In this document: piece after piece, positions 32,341-49,071 of the stretch | Layout: each line of letters begins with the position of its first letter | Numbering within the stretch: the first letter of the stretch is position 1 | Source: Ferruginibacter sp. | Lineage (GTDB): Bacteria > Bacteroidota > Bacteroidia > Chitinophagales > Chitinophagaceae | Length of the DNA: 49,071 nt | Reading direction: 5' to 3' | Assembly (NCBI GenBank): GCA_031360055.1 | Contig: JANMAV010000024.1 | Location: forward strand, 1-49,071 | The notes under the pieces: model-generated | What the model was told of the DNA's origin: nothing | Database searches by the model: none | The model's input: the letters and a program-made list of their open reading frames with translations, nothing else | Translations under genes and position numbers: made by a program

Positions 32341-32811
32341 CTACTCCTCAACAACAGGCAGCTTTCTATTAAACCCTTCCTCAAGCGATATAAAAGTTTC
32401 AGTACGTTCTATACCCTTTATTTTTTGTAAATCATCATGTAGCACTCTTCTAAGTTGGGCAATATCTTTACAAACAATTTCTATAAACATGCTATAGTTA
32501 CCCGTAATATAATTTAGCCGTACAATTTCTTTTATCTTTTTCAACTCTTTTGCCACCGTATCGTATAACGAACTTTTTTCTAAATAAATACCTACAAAAG
32601 CCATACAATCATACCCAAGTAATTTGCTATTAATAATCATTTGGGTGCCGGTAATTATTTTTAACTCTTGCAGTTTTTTTATACGTACATGTATAGTACC
32701 TGCACTTACAAATAACTGTTGGCCAAGCTGAGCGTACGATACCTCAGCATTGTTCATCATGGCATTAATTATCTGCTTGTCTAATTTGTCAATAGTTAAA
32801 GGAGTAGCCAT
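32341..32811 (-). CDS. Lrp/AsnC-family transcriptional regulator (AsnC-like)
   Basis: IDKLDKQII, SYAQL, VSAGTIHVRIKKL HTH; FVGIYLEKS, Y.TG.YS.F and IERTETFISL closely follow the AsnC pattern. Confidence 0.9.
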   Translation of the reverse strand: MATPLTIDKLDKQIINAMMNNAEVSYAQLGQQLFVSAGTIHVRIKKLQELKIITGTQMIINSKLLGYDCMAFVGIYLEKSSLYDTVAKELKKIKEIVRLNYITGNYSMFIEIVCKDIAQLRRVLHDDLQKIKGIERTETFISLEEGFNRKLPVVEE

Positions 32812-32887
32812 TTTAGTATCAGTTTTTAAATAGTATTTAATAAAAGTACAAAATATATGAATATTATCTATATTTTATAAATTAATG

Positions 32888-32902
32888 TTGAAAATTATTC
32901 AG
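32888..32902. promoter_or_regulatory. Candidate Lrp/AsnC operator TTGAAAATTATTCAG
   Basis: TGAA-N5-TTCA dyad; 13/15 match by eye to the E. coli Lrp consensus YAGHAWATTWTDCTR; lies between the asnC-like gene and the RNA gene. Confidence 0.45.
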
Positions 32903-32919
32903 CTTATGAATATATTTTC

Positions 32920-32927
32920 TATCTTTG
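32920..32927 (+). promoter_or_regulatory. -7 promoter element (TATCTTTG) for the tRNA-like RNA
   Basis: Exact TAnnTTTG 34 nt upstream of the acceptor stem; leader contains hairpin GTTACC-AAAG-GGTAAC (32941-32956). Confidence 0.65.
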
Positions 32928-32961
32928 ATTTATCAAACAGGTTACCAAAGGGTAACAATAC

Positions 32962-33133
32962 TGTGGGGTGATGAAATTTTTGGCAGACATGCCCCCTTGT
33001 CTCGGGGGTGAGGATAACAGGACAAACGAAATATAGAGCCATCCCTACACTTGTGTAGGGATGACCGGGGTCGACCACCGAACTTTGTATTTTAGCTAAC
33101 TGCCTCGTGGAGGTTCGACCCCTTCCCCTACAG
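32962..33133 (+). ncRNA. Non-canonical tRNA-like RNA: GUC (Asp) anticodon, tRNA-Leu-type D arm, 100-nt variable-arm insertion
   Basis: Acceptor TGTGGGG/CCCTACA; D arm ATG-AAATTTTTGGCAGA-CAT; anticodon stem CCCCC/GGGGG with loop TTGTCTC; T arm GGAGG-TTCGACC-CCTTC; discriminator G; CCA not encoded. Confidence 0.85.
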
Positions 33134-33308
33134 CATACATTTTTTTAAAGCCCTCGTTACATTAACGGGGGCTTTGTATTGAGCTAACAGCCCCGTACCT
33201 TGGTTACGGGATCGACCCCTTCCCCTACAGCATACATTTTTTTAAAGTCCTCGTTACATTAACGGGGGCTTTGTATTGAGCTAACAGCCCCGTACCATAG
33301 TTACGGGG
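33115..33308 (+). repeat. 97-bp-period tandem duplication including the 3' end of the tRNA-like RNA
   Basis: TCGACCCCTTCCCCTACAGCATACATTTTTTTAAAG(C/T)CCTCGTTACATTAACGGGGGCTTTGTATTGAGCTAACAGCCCCGTACC begins at both 33115 and 33212. Confidence 0.92.
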
Positions 33309-33327
33309 CTCTATAGCATATATTTTT

Positions 33328-33361
33328 AAAGCTCAACTCTTAAAAAGTTGGGCTTTTTTTT
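33328..33361 (+). terminator. Intrinsic terminator closing the tRNA-like transcript
   Basis: AAAGCTCAACT-CTTAAAA-AGTTGGGCTTT followed by a T-run. Confidence 0.75.
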
Positions 33362-33528: not shown

Positions 33529-34239
33529 ATGACAAACAGTAAACCCCTTACCTGTATTTTAATTGATGATAACCCAGTAGCATTACTTATGCTAAAGCAG
33601 CAAATAATGCAGTTGCCTAGCCTTCAAATTTTGGGTGAATTTAATACAGCCATACAAGCAAGTAACTTTTTAAAAAGTAACGAAATAGATCTATTGTTTT
33701 TAGATATTGAAATGCCCGAAATGTCAGGTTTTGAATTGCTAAAATCATTACAGCCGGCACCTATTGCCATTTTAACATCGGCCAGCAAAGCCTATGTAGA
33801 AGAGGCCTATGAAATGAATGTAGCTGATTATTTAATTAAACCTGTACAACTATCAAGGCTCATGATGGCCATAAACAGAGCTACGGAATTGGTAAATAAA
33901 AAAGATGCTGTGTTTAATAAAGTAGAAGATGACCATGTGTTTATAAAAGAAAATAAAACACTCAGAAAACTGTTACTAAAAGATATGTATTGGTTAGAGG
34001 CAAAGGGCGACTATGTAAAAATTTATTTGGCTGAAAAATATCACATCATCCACTCTACCCTTAAACAACTAGAAGAAAAATTACCCTCATCTAAATTTAT
34101 ACGCATACACAGAAGCTACATAATAGCCACCGATAAAATTGAATATATTGAAGATAATGTGGTATATGTAAACAATACACCCATCCCAATATCAGAAGCT
34201 TTAAAACCAGAACTCATAAAAAAACTACATTTTTTATAG
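33529..34239 (+). CDS. LytTR-family response regulator
   Basis: Receiver domain (IDDN, FLDIEMP, DYLIKP) plus LytTR domain (LEAKGDYV, FIRIHRSYII). Confidence 0.93.
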   Translation: MTNSKPLTCILIDDNPVALLMLKQQIMQLPSLQILGEFNTAIQASNFLKSNEIDLLFLDIEMPEMSGFELLKSLQPAPIAILTSASKAYVEEAYEMNVADYLIKPVQLSRLMMAINRATELVNKKDAVFNKVEDDHVFIKENKTLRKLLLKDMYWLEAKGDYVKIYLAEKYHIIHSTLKQLEEKLPSSKFIRIHRSYIIATDKIEYIEDNVVYVNNTPIPISEALKPELIKKLHFL

Positions 34240-40990: not shown

Positions 40991-41248
40991 ATGAGAGTAT
41001 TGTGTATAGATAATAAAAACCCATTAAACCTTAAAAAATTAGCTAAAAGCGATTGGGTGTACGAAGGTGATATGTACACTGTGGTAGATGAGGTTGTAAA
41101 TGAATTTGGCCATTTTTACTTATTAGCCGAAAGGCTAGGAAAAGTTCCCCCTGTATTGTATGCAGCAAGCCGTTTTGTAGCCCTTAGTACCAATACCAAC
41201 ATACAACAATCCAAATACAGTTTGGAAAACACGGAATCCACTTGCTAG
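40991..41248 (+). CDS. Small hypothetical protein divergent from WYL regulator
   Basis: ATG 40991 (MRVLCIDN) preferred to GTG 40919; protein-like composition (CID...EG.MYTV...Y.L.E...SRF). Confidence 0.6.
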   Translation: MRVLCIDNKNPLNLKKLAKSDWVYEGDMYTVVDEVVNEFGHFYLLAERLGKVPPVLYAASRFVALSTNTNIQQSKYSLENTESTC

Positions 41249-41342
41249 ATATGAGAAGTTAGATATGATATGTTAGATAGTAGTTGTTAAATAGTAGATG
41301 TTAAATAGTAGATATTAGATATGAGATGGTAGATATGAGATG
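41246..41342. repeat. Degenerate ~7-bp tandem repeat (TAGATAT/GAGATGT-like)
   Basis: tagatatgagaagttagatatgatatgttagatag...tagatatgagatggtagatatgagatg; no C on the + strand. Confidence 0.7.
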
Positions 41343-41370
41343 TTTGATTACAATGCTCGTAATCGCCTTC

Positions 41371-41710
41371 ATCTTAAAAATCTGCGTTCCAAAAAAACCT
41401 GAGAAAATCAATCAAATCTGTGGCTACAAAAATCTTAAAAATCTTAAAAATCATCAAAATCTGCGTTCCAAAAAAATCTGAGAAAATCAATCAAATCTGT
41501 GGCTACAAAACCTCCAAAAATCTGAGAAAATCATCAAAATCTGCGTTCCAAAAAAATCTGAGAAAATCAATCAAATCTGTGGCTACAAAAATCTTAAAAA
41601 TCATCAAAATCTACGTTCCAAAAAAATCTGAGAAAATCAATCAAATCTGTGGCTATAAAATCTTAATAATCATCAAAATCTGCGTTCCAAAAAAAATTAT
41701 CAAAAATCTG
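41371..41710. repeat. Intergenic tandem array of 69-80-bp units built from AAAATC submotifs
   Basis: TCT(G/A)CGTTCC at 41381, 41460, 41540, 41610 and 41679; the first four are followed by (T/C)CTGAGAAAATCAATCAAATCTGTGGCTA. Confidence 0.92.
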
Positions 41711-43531: not shown

Positions 43532-46500
43532 ATGAAACTAAATAGATATAAAAATATACTGGTAGGCATATTGTTATTTTTTGCATTGGGTATGCAACAA
43601 AGTTTTGGGCAGACGACAATAACCTTGAGTGGGGAAGGTACTGTAACTTGCCCTGCAACTCCAACAGCAATTTGGTCTACACCACCAACAGGTGTAACAT
43701 TTTCTAACCTAACTAGAGGTAGTGGGGTAGCTTGTGCATCTGCTGGAGACGGTATAAGTGGCAGTGGATTTAATACGCTTAACGCCACCACATCTTTCAC
43801 AGCAAATGCATTTTATACACAAACGATTTCAGCAGACGCAACACACTCTTTTACATTAAATTCATTAACTTGGTTATCTACAATAAGTTCAGGTAGTGCA
43901 ACTTTGACTGTACAATATAGTAATAATGGAGGGGTAGTTACTAATTTTGGCACTGCTGGCCAAGTTGTAACTGGAAGTGCCTCTACTAGTATGTTTTCAG
44001 GCAATGTAACCGTAGCTGCAGGTAAATCAATTGTATTGTATTTTATACCTTCAAATACAAGTGCTGCAGGAACAACTGTAAGATTTAAAAATGGCTCAAC
44101 AATTAATTTAACTGGTTGTACAACTACCTCTATTACATCTCAGCCTTCACCTACAACCCAAACAGTTTGCCAAAATACAATACCATCTAATTTATCAGTA
44201 ACTGCTACAGGCACAGGGTTAGCTTACCAATGGTATAGCAATGCAACCAATTTAAATACTGGTGGCACACTAATTTCAGGTGCAACCAATGCAACATACA
44301 CTCCGCAAACAGCAACTGCAAATACTACGTATTATTATGTAATAGTAACAGGCACTTGCGGTACGGTTACCAGCAATACAGCTACTGTTGTAGTAAACCC
44401 AACAACAAGGGTTACAGGCATTGGTCCGTCATTTCAAATTCTTTGTAATGGTGCAGCACCAACTGCCATTACTATAACTGCTGTTGGTATTAATAACACC
44501 TACCAATGGTATAGCAACACAACTAATTCTAATACCAGCGGTAGCCTAATTGCTGGCGCAACTACTACGTCATACACACCGCCTACACCAACAAATAATG
44601 ATACAGCATTTTATTATTGTAGGGCAATGGGTACCTGTGGTAACGATGTATCAATGGTTGTGTATGTATTTAAGCCAATACCTATTACAATTACCATGCA
44701 GCCAACGGCAACACAAACAGTTTGTCAAAATGCGGTAACCACATTAAGTGTAACAGCAACTGGTACTGCACTTACGTATCAATGGTTTGTAAACAATACA
44801 GTGCCTAGTCAAATAGGTAGTGTTGGCATTAATGGTGCAGACCAATCAACGTACAACCCTCCAACAGATGCATTGGGTACCAAATATTACTATGTTGTAA
44901 TTAAAGGTGCCTGTGATAATACTGGAGTTAGTTCTAATTTTGCTGCGGTAACTGTTGCTCCAACGGTTGCAAATGCAGGTACTATTACAGGAAATTCACC
45001 TATATGTATAGATAGTACAACTACATACACATCTAGTACTCCTGGCGGTACATGGTCAAGTTCAAATACGGCAGTAGCTACTGTAGTGGCAAATACAGGT
45101 GTAGTAACTGGTAAAAGTGCAGGTACAGCTAATATTATATATACCATCGGCACTGGTTGTACGGCTACTTCATCTAAAAGTATTACTGTTCAAGCTTCAC
45201 CTAGTATTATATTAACTTCTGCATTTAATACCGATAACCAATCAGCTTGTGTAGCCTCACCTATAACCCAAATTGTATATAATATAGGTGGTAGTGCTAC
45301 AGGGGCTACGGTATCTGGTCTGCCTGCTGGCATTATGGGTACATATAGCTCCGGGGTTTTTACTATAAGTGGTACAACAACACAAACAGGTTTGTTTGCC
45401 TATACTGTAACTACAACAGGTGGTTGTACCAATGTTTCAGCAACGGGTAGCATTACTGTAAATGCACAACCAAACGCAACTATTTCTGCCAATGCATCTG
45501 CTGCTTGCCAAAATACTACTTCTCCAAGAGTTTTATTTACAGGTAATTCTGGTACAAGGCCCTATACATTTTCATACAATATAAATGGTGGTAGCACTTT
45601 TATGGTTACTACCACTACTAACGATACCGTTTCTGTGGCAGCACCAACGGGCACAGCAGGTACTTTTAATTATAACCTTACAATGGTTGCCGATGCTAAT
45701 ACTTGTACCAGAGCAATTACTGGCCAAACGAGTACAGTAACGATTAATCAAACACCGATGGTAACTACTTTTTTACCTAATTTAATATTATGTAATGGCG
45801 TAACTAGGGCAGCTGTTCCTTTAACAGGCACACCAACTGGTACAACATTTACATATTTTGGAGGTGCATCAGTTGGTTTAGTTAATCGTGAGGGTGTTAC
45901 TCAAATTTCTGGCTTTACAGCCACCAATAACGGTACTACACCAATTACAGCTACTGTAACAGTTAGACCATTTACCAGCGGTTTATGTATTGGCCCTGAT
46001 TCTATCTTTACGATTACGGTTAACCCAACCCCAACGGTATCAAGTACACCAAGTACACAAACGGTTTGTTCAGGTTCGGCAATCACTGCCATTTCGTTTA
46101 CTGGAACAGTTTCGGGTACAGTTTTTAATTGGGCAAGGAATAATACAACAAACGTAACCGGTTTAACATCAGGCACTGGAAATATTACAGGTTCATTAAT
46201 TAATACAACCTCTACTCCTCAAACAGTTACTTTTACCACCACACCTACAGCTAATGGCTGCTCGGGCACACCAATCACTAACACAGTAATTGTAAACCCA
46301 CAACCAACAGCAACAATAACTGGTACTACAACGGTTTGCCAAAATACCACACCTGCACCAAGTATAACCTTTACAGGCAGTAATGGCACAGCACCATATA
46401 CCTTTAGTTATCAAATAAACGGAGGTACTACTCAAATGGTAACTACCAGCACAGGTAGTAGTGTAACGGTTAGCCAAGCAACTACCACAAGTGGCACATT

Positions 46501-49071
46501 TACATATACGCTTACCAATGTAAGCGATGCAGCCTCACCTAGTTGTAGCAGAACCATTACTGGTCAATCAGCAACAGTAACAGTAAATCCACAACCAACT
46601 GCTACAATAACTGGTACTACAACGGTTTGCCAAAACAGCAGCAATCCAAATATTACATTTATGGGTAGCAATGGTACTGCACCATATATTTTTAGTTATC
46701 AAATAAACGGAGGTAGCACACAATCAATAACTACTACTTCTGGCAATAGTGTAACAGTAGCAGCACCAACTACTGCAAGCGGCACATTTACTTATTCTTT
46801 AACAAGTGTAAGTGATAATGCAACGCCAAGTTGCACAAAAACCATTACTGGCCAATCAGCCATTGTAACTGTAAACCCACAACCAAACGCAACCATTGCT
46901 GGTACCACAGCAGCTTGTCAAAATACAGCATCGCCAAGAGTTTTATTTACAGGTAATACTGGTACAAGGCCTTACACTTTTTCGTACAACATAAATGGTG
47001 GTAGCACTTTTATGGTTACTACCACTACTAACGATACCGTTTCTGTGGCAGCACCAACGGGCACAGCAGGTTCTTTTGATTATAACCTTACAAATGTAAA
47101 AGATGCCAATACTTGTAGCCGTGCTATAACAGGTCAAGCTGCTACAGTAACTATCAACACAGTTCCTACAGCAACAATCTCTGGCACCACAAGTGTTTGT
47201 CACAATTCTACTCCATTGCCAATTGTTACATTAACAGCTGCCAACGGTTTATCTCCATACACATTTGCAGGTAATATAAATAATGTTGATGCAATGATTA
47301 TGACTGCTTCAGGCAGCAATACGGCTACAGTAATGGCATCTACAGCAACGGTAGGTATTTTTAATTATAACTTAACCATGGTTACCGATGCCAATGGTTG
47401 TGCACAGGCTCAAACAGGTACTGCAACTATTACAGTAAATGCAAGGCCAACAGCCATGTTAAGTGGTATGGGTACATACTGCAACGGTCAAACCACCACC
47501 ACAACATTAAGCATAGCAGTAACAGGATCAGGCACCATAACTGGTACTTTAAGCGATGGTACAAGCTTCAGCGGTACAGCACCAACAATTACCGTACAAG
47601 TAACCCCAACAACAACTACTACTTATACCGTAGCTACATTGGTGGATGCTAATTGTACAGCTACATCTACTGACTTATCAGGCAGTGCAACCGTAACAGT
47701 AAATGCAAGGCCAACAGCCATGTTAAGTGGTATGGGTACATACTGCAATGGTCAAACCACTACCACAACATTAAGCATAGCAGTAACAGGATCAGGCACC
47801 ATAACTGGTACCTTAAGCGATGGTACAAGCTTCAGCGGTACAGCACCAACAATTACCGTACAAGTAAGCCCAACAACAACTACTACTTATACCATAGCTA
47901 CATTGGTGGATGCTAACTGTACAGCTACATCTACTGATTTATCAGGCAGTGCAACTGTAACAGTAAATGCAAGGCCAACAGCAACAATAGAAGGCACAAC
48001 TACTGTTTGCCAAAACAGCACACCTGATCCAAGAATATTATTTACGGGCAATAATGGGACATCGCCTTATGTATTTAGTTATACTCTAGGAGGTAATAAT
48101 TTTACAGTTGCTACCCAAGCAGGAAAAGATACCGTAACAGTAGTAGCACCAACTACTACAAGTGGTGCATTTACATATACAATTACTAATGTAGCAGATG
48201 CAAATTGTAGTCAAGCACAAACTGGCTCAGCTACGGTAACGGTTAATGCAACTACAGTTATAACTACCCAACCAACCCCAACCACTCAAACGATTTGTCA
48301 AAATGCAGCTACTACCCCTATAACGGTAACAGCTACAGGCACAGCATTAAATTACCAATGGTACAGCAATGCTACCAATAGTAATACAGGTGGTACTTTA
48401 ATAAGCGGTGCAACAACATCAAGCTATACTCCATTATCTACCACAGCAGACAGTACGTATTATTATGTAGTAGTGGCAGGTAATTGTGATACAGTTAGTT
48501 CAAATACAGCGGAGGTAATAGTAAATGCAACTACAGTTATAACTACCCAACCAACCCCAACTACACAAACGGTTTGTCAAAATGCAGCAACCACTGCCAT
48601 AACGGTAACAGCTACAGGCACAGCATTAACCTACCAATGGTACAGCAATGCTACCAATAGCAATACAGGTGGTGCAGCAATAACAGGTGCTACCACAAAT
48701 AGCTATAGCCCAAGTAGCAGCACAGCAGACAGTACGTATTATTATGTAGTAGTGGCAGGTACTTGTGATACAGTTAGTTCAAATACAGCGGAGGTAATAG
48801 TAAATGCAACAACAACCATTACCAATGTAGCTTTTGTTGATCAAACAGTATGCAAAGACAGTGCAGCAGTTACATACACGGCAGCAGCAACTGGCATGAA
48901 TGTAACATACAAATGGTATAGCAATGCAAGCAATAGCAGCATGGGAGGTACGGAAGTAGCCATGACAGCGATGTTTACACCAAGCACAGCAACAGCAGGC
49001 ACAACATATTATTACGCAGTAGCCACTGGCGATTGTGGCAGCGATACAAGTAATGTAGCAGAGGTAATAGT
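43532..49071 (+). CDS. Giant Thr/Ser/Gly-rich Ig-repeat surface adhesin, 3'-truncated by window end (>1840 aa)
   Basis: MKLNRYKNILVGILLFFALGMQQSFGQ signal peptide. Absence from the ORF track implies no stop in this frame before the window end. Repeated ~88-97-aa units (TQTVCQN...YQWYSN...YYYVVV.G.C; PYTFSY.INGG). Alternative in-frame ATGs at 43340, 43349, 43466 and 43484. Confidence 0.88.
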   Translation, partial: MKLNRYKNILVGILLFFALGMQQSFGQTTITLSGEGTVTCPATPTAIWSTPPTGVTFSNLTRGSGVACASAGDGISGSGFNTLNATTSFTANAFYTQTISADATHSFTLNSLTWLSTISSGSATLTVQYSNNGGVVTNFGTAGQVVTGSASTSMFSGNVTVAAGKSIVLYFIPSNTSAAGTTVRFKNGSTINLTGCTTTSITSQPSPTTQTVCQNTIPSNLSVTATGTGLAYQWYSNATNLNTGGTLISGATNATYTPQTATANTTYYYVIVTGTCGTVTSNTATVVVNPTTRVTGIGPSFQILCNGAAPTAITITAVGINNTYQWYSNTTNSNTSGSLIAGATTTSYTPPTPTNNDTAFYYCRAMGTCGNDVSMVVYVFKPIPITITMQPTATQTVCQNAVTTLSVTATGTALTYQWFVNNTVPSQIGSVGINGADQSTYNPPTDALGTKYYYVVIKGACDNTGVSSNFAAVTVAPTVANAGTITGNSPICIDSTTTYTSSTPGGTWSSSNTAVATVVANTGVVTGKSAGTANIIYTIGTGCTATSSKSITVQASPSIILTSAFNTDNQSACVASPITQIVYNIGGSATGATVSGLPAGIMGTYSSGVFTISGTTTQTGLFAYTVTTTGGCTNVSATGSITVNAQPNATISANASAACQNTTSPRVLFTGNSGTRPYTFSYNINGGSTFMVTTTTNDTVSVAAPTGTAGTFNYNLTMVADANTCTRAITGQTSTVTINQTPMVTTFLPNLILCNGVTRAAVPLTGTPTGTTFTYFGGASVGLVNREGVTQISGFTATNNGTTPITATVTVRPFTSGLCIGPDSIFTITVNPTPTVSSTPSTQTVCSGSAITAISFTGTVSGTVFNWARNNTTNVTGLTSGTGNITGSLINTTSTPQTVTFTTTPTANGCSGTPITNTVIVNPQPTATITGTTTVCQNTTPAPSITFTGSNGTAPYTFSYQINGGTTQMVTTSTGSSVTVSQATTTSGTFTYTLTNVSDAASPSCSRTITGQSATVTVNPQPTATITGTTTVCQNSSNPNITFMGSNGTAPYIFSYQINGGSTQSITTTSGNSVTVAAPTTASGTFTYSLTSVSDNATPSCTKTITGQSAIVTVNPQPNATIAGTTAACQNTASPRVLFTGNTGTRPYTFSYNINGGSTFMVTTTTNDTVSVAAPTGTAGSFDYNLTNVKDANTCSRAITGQAATVTINTVPTATISGTTSVCHNSTPLPIVTLTAANGLSPYTFAGNINNVDAMIMTASGSNTATVMASTATVGIFNYNLTMVTDANGCAQAQTGTATITVNARPTAMLSGMGTYCNGQTTTTTLSIAVTGSGTITGTLSDGTSFSGTAPTITVQVTPTTTTTYTVATLVDANCTATSTDLSGSATVTVNARPTAMLSGMGTYCNGQTTTTTLSIAVTGSGTITGTLSDGTSFSGTAPTITVQVSPTTTTTYTIATLVDANCTATSTDLSGSATVTVNARPTATIEGTTTVCQNSTPDPRILFTGNNGTSPYVFSYTLGGNNFTVATQAGKDTVTVVAPTTTSGAFTYTITNVADANCSQAQTGSATVTVNATTVITTQPTPTTQTICQNAATTPITVTATGTALNYQWYSNATNSNTGGTLISGATTSSYTPLSTTADSTYYYVVVAGNCDTVSSNTAEVIVNATTVITTQPTPTTQTVCQNAATTAITVTATGTALTYQWYSNATNSNTGGAAITGATTNSYSPSSSTADSTYYYVVVAGTCDTVSSNTAEVIVNATTTITNVAFVDQTVCKDSAAVTYTAAATGMNVTYKWYSNASNSSMGGTEVAMTAMFTPSTATAGTTYYYAVATGDCGSDTSNVAEVI
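47432..47982 (+). repeat. 264-bp near-identical tandem duplication within adhesin gene
   Basis: ACAGTAAATGCAAGGCCAACAGC starts at 47432, 47696 and 47960. Confidence 0.92.
48245..48810 (+). repeat. 279-bp tandem duplication within adhesin gene
   Basis: AATGCAACTACAGTTATAACTACCCAACCAACCCCAAC at 48245 and 48524; a more diverged third unit begins at 48803. Confidence 0.88.

Follow-up and report, generated by a model that had tools for sequence, protein, structure and literature searches.

What does a tRNA-like RNA do beside an AsnC-type regulator, in the position that Escherichia coli gives to an asparagine synthetase gene? In E. coli, asnC is divergent from asnA across 151 bp, and asparagine (Asn) is the ligand of AsnC (PMC2504300). 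In the window considered here, the whole stretch of 49,071 nucleotides analysed from a Ferruginibacter sp. (contig JANMAV010000024.1), a related regulator gene faces its divergent neighbour across a near-identical gap of 150 bp, but that neighbour is an RNA gene rather than a synthetase gene. A sequence-only reading of the locus had proposed an Asp-type tRNA mimic in the place of asnA, which AspRS could charge and GatCAB amidate, and had named a leader element among the alternatives.

Results

A tRNA-like RNA gene divergent from the regulator gene

The divergent arrangement and its spacing, as originally described, were borne out by the open reading frame (32341-32811, minus strand) and by U1 of the RNA at 32962 (Table 1). 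The U1-A72 pair was likewise confirmed from the sequence, 32962 pairing with the partner strand 33126-33132. The source genome is 98% complete, and the closest AsnC-like relatives of the regulator lie in Ferruginibacter and other Chitinophagaceae records.

Table 1. Features of the regulator-RNA locus, in window coordinates
Feature	Position	Strand	Details
Lrp/AsnC-family regulator	32341-32811	-	156 aa; Pfam PF01037 and PF13404
A/T-rich intergenic region	32812-32919	.	phased, conserved A and T tracts (consensus from 78 upstream regions anchored on the promoter)
TAnnTTTG element	32920-32927	+	34 nt before U1
tRNA-like RNA gene	32962-33133	+	172 nt; 7/5 cloverleaf
RNA features			class-II (Leu-like) D arm with 20a; U1-A72, G2-C71, G73, C74 encoded, no CCA
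Acceptor stem	32962-32968 with 33126-33132	+	U1-A72, G2-C71; read from sequence
Anticodon arm	32992-33008	+	G34 U35 C36, U37, C38
Anticodon GUC	32999-33001	+	followed by U37, C38
Variable-arm domain	33009-33108	+	100 nt; covariation in helices 4-7
T arm	33109-33125	+	normal
G73 of RNA	33133	+	CCA not encoded
Two decayed tandem copies of RNA 3' end plus tail	33167-33327	+	97-nt period
Intrinsic-terminator-like hairpin and U tract	33328-33361	+

The RNA has a folding z-score of -3.4, which none of 200 shuffles reached. In an alignment of 43 homologs, a hand-drawn structure has 93% of its cells paired and two-sided change in 30 of its 44 pairs, compared with 45-56% pairing when the partners are slid by 1-3 columns; the structure was derived from the same 43 homologs and is thus somewhat favoured by this test. 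The variable arm comprises a basal stem, a conserved A-rich internal loop, an 11-bp helix, a variable hairpin (33040-33063) and a conserved tetraloop hairpin with a bulged A. The variable hairpin resembles a palindromic repeat found elsewhere in the same genome (G000, contigs C89 and C284, and C190:6068-6151), and the repeat also occurs inside a broken tRNA-like gene of this genome that ARAGORN calls tRNA-Stop.

ARAGORN reported 0 genes over the window and only noise under relaxed settings. Rfam gave only chance matches, far under gathering scores, and nothing on five homolog loci except one neighbouring tRNA. No description of the RNA was found in the full-text literature, and subscription papers, supplements, closed bioRxiv supplements or tRNA database entries could hold one; the gene is apparently undescribed so far.

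Upstream of the RNA, the TAnnTTTG element, which we take to be the Bacteroidota housekeeping -7 promoter motif, occurs within 90 nt in 81 of 88 loci, a count made without a shuffle control. The phased A/T-rich region between this element and the regulator gene is a candidate regulator-binding region. Downstream, no asparagine synthetase follows, as had been claimed; the next gene, at 33529 behind the terminator-like hairpin, encodes a LytTR response regulator. Of the hairpins and terminator described earlier, which span 33167-33361, the terminator-like element stands, but what had been read as further hairpins is a pair of degenerate repeats of the RNA's 3' end and tail. Elsewhere in the window there are intergenic tandem arrays between two genes (41246-41695; periods of 7-14 and 70-80 nt) and, at 46283-48814, repeats of 264-288 nt that are probably domain repeats of a large surface protein.

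Conservation of the RNA in genomes, metagenomes and phages

The 5' end of the RNA lies divergent from and upstream of AsnC in 74 of the 80 best AsnC loci of the genome collection, with a median gap of 151 bp, and one of the six remaining loci has only 2 bases of upstream sequence. Among class-wide carriers, that is, genomes with the RNA, it is divergent from a gene of the AsnC clade in 23 of 27, so that the adjacency seen in the window is conserved. Both GUC and U1 are present in all 89 parsed AsnC-anchored copies (neither anticodon nor acceptor was in the query), and A72 in 87, the other two having mis-parsed 3' ends.

When all sources are pooled, U35, C36, C38, G2-C71, G73 and C74 are invariant in the 265 distinct full copies. 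The pair U1-A72, whose conservation the sequence-only reading had made a check on itself, is present in 263; the other 2, both from phages, have A1-U72, and G1-C72 occurs in none. G34 is found in 258 copies and replaced in 7, U33 is found in 235 (30 are non-U33), and position 37 is a pyrimidine in 260 and a purine in 5. It should be emphasized that the search patterns fixed A72, G73 and C74 in the 107 metagenome copies, and the anticodon in one search; position 1 and the anticodon loop were left open in these 107 copies, all of which have U1, U35, C36 and C38, and 103 of which have G34. Three nucleotides follow G18 G19, such that 20a is kept, in 265 of 265 copies; the parser required a D-arm layout with 20a, and the window and the homolog alignment show 20a directly. 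The variable arm ranges from 7 to 141 nt (median 100), and, being as short as 7 nt in some copies, is not needed by all lineages.

Viral contigs yielded 46 stretches in a search that left the anticodon arm free, all with GUC. Phage copies of the RNA are free-standing, with no Asn genes in the 1.5-kb flanks read; one phage-type query against cultured phage records gave no match. The metagenome contigs listed are all longer than 1 kb, and transcript ends were not seen in them. The downstream neighbours of the RNA are not conserved, comprising 57 genes in 42 families with 25 of the 57 on the same strand, and neither asnA nor asnB was present in the RNA loci tested. The RNA gene is real and conserved.

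Several variant forms were observed. A short form in G193 (L254, G193:C23:55338-55413) is 76 nt long, with an AUC anticodon and a 7-nt variable loop; it is unlinked to AsnC, and its genome has AsnA. A 90-nt phage form (L124:500-589) is called tRNA-Asp by ARAGORN. Whole copies occur in tandem, often with different arms, in G013, G014, G017, G078, G173, G216, G296, G379 and L104, and both copies of G173 have a UUC anticodon.

Identity elements compared with known tRNAs

A decoding-type anticodon loop has U33 and a purine at position 37. The RNA departs from this pattern, and the pyrimidine at 37 in 260 of 265 copies, together with the loss of U33 from some, argues against decoding. In tRNA-Asp, identity resides in G73, G34, U35, C36 and C38, and G1-C72 and G2-C71 are conserved in the bacterial tRNA (PMC9976931). 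The RNA shares this Asp set and G2-C71 with bacterial tRNA-Asp(GUC) but differs in having U1-A72 rather than G1-C72, a pyrimidine at 37, a variable position 33, a class-II D arm and a 100-nt arm. It is therefore a hybrid, in which an aspartate identity is joined to U1-A72, and it lacks the G1-C72 pair, decoding-type loop and short variable loop of canonical tRNA-Asp.

Class-II tRNA-Leu has A73 and a variable arm of about 10-24 nt. The RNA resembles it in D-arm layout, A15-U48 and 20a, whereas it has G73 in all copies, a fixed Asp anticodon and an arm of up to 141 nt; we infer that tRNA-Leu is its likely ancestor. A tmRNA was ruled out, as the anticodon arm is intact with no tag frame there, and the genome's own tmRNA is on contig C263. 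The RNA is like the allo-tRNAs and selC* in being a non-canonical tRNA with a long variable arm and G73, but these have an 8/4 or 9/3 fold and a free anticodon (PMC5389517), and the 7/5 fold and conserved anticodon seen here exclude it from that group. Bacteroidetes are unmentioned in the main text of that paper ('Bacteroid' occurs 0 times; PMC5389517). The RNA accordingly belongs to none of the tRNA classes against which it was compared.

Bacterial GatCAB recognizes its substrates by U1-A72, and nucleotide 20a works against it; a Neisseria tRNA-Asp given U1-A72 but retaining 20a is amidated 120-fold less efficiently than tRNA-Asn (PMC1635274, Table 1). The RNA has the first of these features, and the host has gatA, gatB and gatC, but the D loop is not free of 20a. 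The earlier caveat that the enlarged D loop could be an antideterminant for GatCAB consequently stands, although it concerns nucleotide 20a and not the U-run before G18. A docking model places the tail of GatB near the D and variable loops (PMC2811023), and the class-II core or the arm might offset 20a.

The regulator

Among NCBIfam models the best match of the regulator is AsnC PRK11179, at 156 bits, which is under the curated cut-off of 227 for AsnC equivalogs, a difference from E. coli AsnC, but leads the next family by 28 orders of E-value. The best PDB match is E. coli AsnC itself (2cg4, E 9e-32; next 4e-18), to which the recognition helix and YxTGxYS loop are related. The pocket-loop motif is conserved, yet is present also in paralogs unlinked to the RNA. 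The top AsnC clade occurs in 32 of 150 Bacteroidia genomes, and all 27 carriers are among these; in the five that keep it without the RNA, the gene sits behind another gene with nothing divergent. At 25 AsnC loci that lack the RNA, scanning with the covariance model revealed no diverged form. The proposal that the RNA stands in the place of asnA holds loosely: in G145 an AsnC homolog (41% identity, outside the RNA-linked clade) is divergent from asnB, but no AsnC gene lies within about 1.5 kb of asnA at any of 5 loci. By comparison with E. coli AsnC, the regulator may be expected to sense Asn and to control the RNA.

Coupling of the RNA to gatB

Gene content was profiled in 150 Bacteroidia genomes of at least 95% completeness, with 21 candidates per genome scored by a purpose-built covariance model. 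Scores were bimodal: 26 genomes reached at least 92 bits, and the short form of G193, at 64 bits, made 27 carriers; the lower-scoring matches were tRNA-Leu in 20 of 20 sampled. After 3 weak matches in 660-aa frames had been dropped from a raw count of 114, gatB was present in 111 genomes. GlnRS was found in 57, and GlnRS or full gatB in 149; AsnRS in 143, and in all 5 genomes that were searched again with a relaxed limit (two more lay outside the retest); E. coli-type AsnB in 19 and AsnA in 5. Every one of the 27 carriers encodes GatB and AsnRS; E. coli-type AsnB is found in none of them and AsnA in one.

In the absence of GlnRS, GatCAB is needed for Gln-tRNA. Of the 92 gatB genomes without GlnRS, 13 have the RNA and 79 lack it. 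Among the 57 GlnRS-positive genomes, for which the link between RNA and gatB was predicted before the GlnRS counts were seen, the RNA is present in 14 of 19 with gatB versus 0 of 38 without; Fisher p-values for the profile are inflated by genome relatedness. Four of the five exceptions encode GatB in a frame of 1110-1120 aa, and the fifth, G208, is an assembly of 210 contigs with gatB in which neither the RNA nor the AsnC gene was found. The long frames, in G429 (L347, G429:C8:94800-98400; 1110 aa), G368, G402 and G454, appear as a family-wide alternative in genomes with GlnRS and AsnRS and no RNA; the one fusion read, that of G429, joins GatB to a second AspRS with a His at the position of the His in the non-discriminating Pseudomonas aeruginosa enzyme. 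In GlnRS-positive genomes, gatB is thus seldom retained unless the RNA or a fused second AspRS accompanies it, and the simplest account, which we consider somewhat better than even, is that the RNA would be the substrate of GatCAB in those genomes.

In a second sample of 65 genomes, mostly Chitinophagales, gatB was present in 39 of 39 known carriers, and the RNA was found in none of 12 gatB-less genomes, as judged by the model (2), BLAST (4), a pattern (2) or the asnC locus only (4). A further carrier identified by the covariance model, G106, also has gatB. Carriers lacking gatCAB, which the sequence-only reading had put forward as evidence against amidation, were not encountered among the carriers tested for gatB (27/27, 39/39 and G106, in total 67/67). 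RNA and gatB have been lost together inside five families, and 5 RNA-less, gatB-less members of carrier families have E. coli-type AsnB. What is new here is that the coupling to gatB is conditional on GlnRS and that the RNA excludes AsnB and the fusion.

Conversely, gatB without the RNA was seen in G008 and G019, whose assemblies, like that of G208, are fragmented, and in eight more genomes of the second sample that gave no BLAST match to the RNA. Of the 150 genomes, 77 have gatB and none of RNA, AsnA, E. coli-type AsnB or fusion. A further 21 lack gatB as well as AsnA and AsnB, so that apparent auxotrophy is common, and five gatB-less Chitinophagales also lack E. coli-type AsnB. Short diverged forms were ruled out as the missing RNA of RNA-less gatB genomes: a pattern search for arms of 3-33 nt in the 150 genomes found G193 only, and the weak model matches sampled were tRNA-Leu. 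The unpublished genome G410, among the 150, was scored as having gatB and lacking both GlnRS and the RNA; none of the conclusions depends on it by itself.

In a quick GatB tree the carriers are spread out, with 10 label changes needed compared with 12.1 after shuffling, and a comparison of 16 with 20 sequences, one row incomplete, gave no convincing carrier-specific GatB residues. GatB branches are longer in the GlnRS-positive genomes G173 (1.98), G339 (1.77), G296 (1.19) and G208 (1.18) than the median of 0.46, as if constraint were relaxed once GlnRS is present. GatB_N is matched weakly (E about 1e-40 to 1e-47) by frames of 660-670 aa in G363, G413, G461 and G031, which have no full gatB.

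Host enzymes and tRNAs

The Ferruginibacter genome has gatA, gatB, gatC, AsnRS, GlnRS and one AspRS. AsnA was not found in it; three proteins score above the broad AsnB threshold TIGR01536, of which two are neighbours of glycan genes and the third is not. A separate normal tRNA-Asp is present, and tRNA-Asn has U1-A72, which leaves the canonical amidation route open, and carries 20a like tRNA-Asp. We take His31/Gly83 to be a specificity signature of AspRS, for which no paper was found in the literature; the host enzyme has Phe at the His31 site and no Gly83. None of the 69 main AspRS read, out of about 150 matches, has the His, whether from carriers or not, so that it does not separate the groups, and the analogous GluRS Arg, being present also in 4 of 5 GlnRS-less genomes, failed as a predictor. 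A lone bacterial AspRS can be non-discriminating, as in Bdellovibrio, Legionella and S. aureus, and the same paper counts Bacteroidetes among the genera that lack an Asn synthetase yet have AsnRS, GlnRS and GatCAB (PMC4206432).

Discussion

The sequence-only reading is partly supported, through synteny, the U1-A72 pair and the presence of gatB, while its leader alternative is not and the place of asnA is only loosely apt. We favour, with modest confidence, the view that the RNA would be a dedicated non-decoding carrier on which AspRS charges Asp, GatCAB amidates it to Asn and Asn is released, the whole probably being under the control of the neighbouring AsnC-type regulator. CCA would be added to the 3' end, and the single AspRS would recognize the RNA through G73 and the GUC/C38 loop. 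GatCAB would then pick the Asp-RNA by its U1-A72 pair, and the odd anticodon loop and large arm may keep the mis-matched Asn-RNA(GUC) off the ribosome; loss of decoding features would presumably matter only if the carried amino acid mismatched the anticodon. Asn would finally be freed by deacylation, the least supported step, for AsnRS to load on tRNA-Asn. Such a carrier would give GatCAB a substrate in cells with AsnRS and GlnRS that lack AsnA and E. coli-type AsnB.

The off-ribosome use proposed is like that of the staphylococcal non-proteinogenic tRNA-Gly, which donates an unchanged amino acid. Known tRNA-dependent Asn synthesis, in which a non-discriminating AspRS and GatCAB act on tRNA-Asn, involves the same enzymes and U1-A72 and occurs in genomes with AsnRS and GlnRS and without AsnA/AsnB (PMC1635274, PMC4206432). 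There, however, the carrier is the decoding tRNA-Asn and the product passes to the ribosome, whereas here a separate GUC-bearing RNA with non-decoding features is proposed. On the evidence of sequence, we hold it evenly balanced whether these elements amount to a new Asn route, with a reusable RNA cofactor, a discriminating AspRS, GatCAB, free Asn and an AsnC switch, that serves also as an auxiliary metabolic RNA of Bacteroidota phages.

A number of observations weigh against the carrier. By analogy with the Neisseria variant and its 120-fold cost (PMC1635274), the 20a kept in all copies could make the RNA a poor substrate. The host's tRNA-Asn has U1-A72, its genome encodes three AsnB-like proteins, and 77 gatB genomes do without RNA, AsnA/AsnB and fusion; G193 has both the short RNA and AsnA. 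Seven of the 265 copies have another base in place of G34, two phage copies have A1-U72, and carrier GatB has no distinctive residues. Five gatB-less Chitinophagales manage without E. coli-type AsnB, and G008, G019 and G208 have gatB with no RNA found in their fragmented assemblies. Neither the AspRS His nor the GluRS Arg separates the groups, and a lone AspRS can be non-discriminating (PMC4206432).

It could be argued from several of these points that the host AspRS is non-discriminating, that Asn is made on tRNA-Asn, and that the RNA, under AsnC control, tunes AspRS and GatCAB as a decoy or scaffold. This would fit the U1-A72 of the host's tRNA-Asn and the precedent of Bdellovibrio, Legionella and S. 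aureus (PMC4206432), it would explain the Asn supply of the 77 RNA-less gatB genomes, and the RNA, with its 20a, could be bound without serving as a substrate. An accessory of this kind, however, should be freely lost while gatB stays, and such loss is seen in 79 of 92 GlnRS-less genomes yet in 1 of 15 GlnRS-positive gatB genomes without the fusion; the second AspRS fused to GatB in one family would be needless if the main enzyme sufficed, and the host's tRNA-Asn carries 20a as tRNA-Asp does. We therefore consider the decoy unlikely. Less likely again is an Asp-charged sensor, or an aminoacyl donor to another partner, with the gatB link reflecting a shared lifestyle. The invariant Asp determinants, the conserved loops of the large arm, which could bind protein, and the phage copies with no linked Asn genes in the 1.5-kb flanks read are in keeping with such a role, but it leaves unexplained the exchange of G1-C72 for U1-A72, gatB in 67 of 67 carriers and the joint losses in five families, and the 57 downstream neighbours in 42 families include no syntenic partner gene.

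The RNA might instead carry Glu for amidation to Gln, or be a SerRS substrate like the long-armed allo-tRNAs, given that G73 with a long arm is a SerRS signal (PMC5389517) and that the two G173 copies have UUC. We give this little credence, as the anticodon is constrained rather than free (GUC in 258 of 265 copies, C38 invariant), the linkage is to AsnC, and forms with 7-nt and 24-nt arms exist. That the RNA is a decayed tRNA pseudogene or a leader acting in cis on the genes downstream, to which the tandem decayed fragments after the RNA and the integration-like variability downstream might point, is hardly credible and already largely refuted: covariation is strong, the RNA comes with a promoter motif and terminator of its own, no downstream gene is conserved and only 25 of the 57 neighbours share its strand, asnA and asnB are missing from the RNA loci tested, and phages carry free-standing copies. 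The leader suggested at the outset was accordingly rejected, its hairpins being remnants of the RNA, and a T-box or attenuator was ruled out in the same way, there being no conserved co-directional downstream gene and no Rfam match.

The retention of GatCAB alongside AsnRS and GlnRS has so far been ascribed, by assumption, to a relaxed AspRS (PMC4206432). If the carrier reading is true, it would explain why many Bacteroidota keep GatCAB despite having both synthetases, and would provide an example of a tRNA mimic acting as a metabolic cofactor in the making of a free amino acid. It would also be a natural instance of synthetase and amidotransferase identity combined in one molecule that excludes the ribosome, and would mean that an RNA gene has been overlooked in a group abundant in soil and freshwater, and in the phages of that group.
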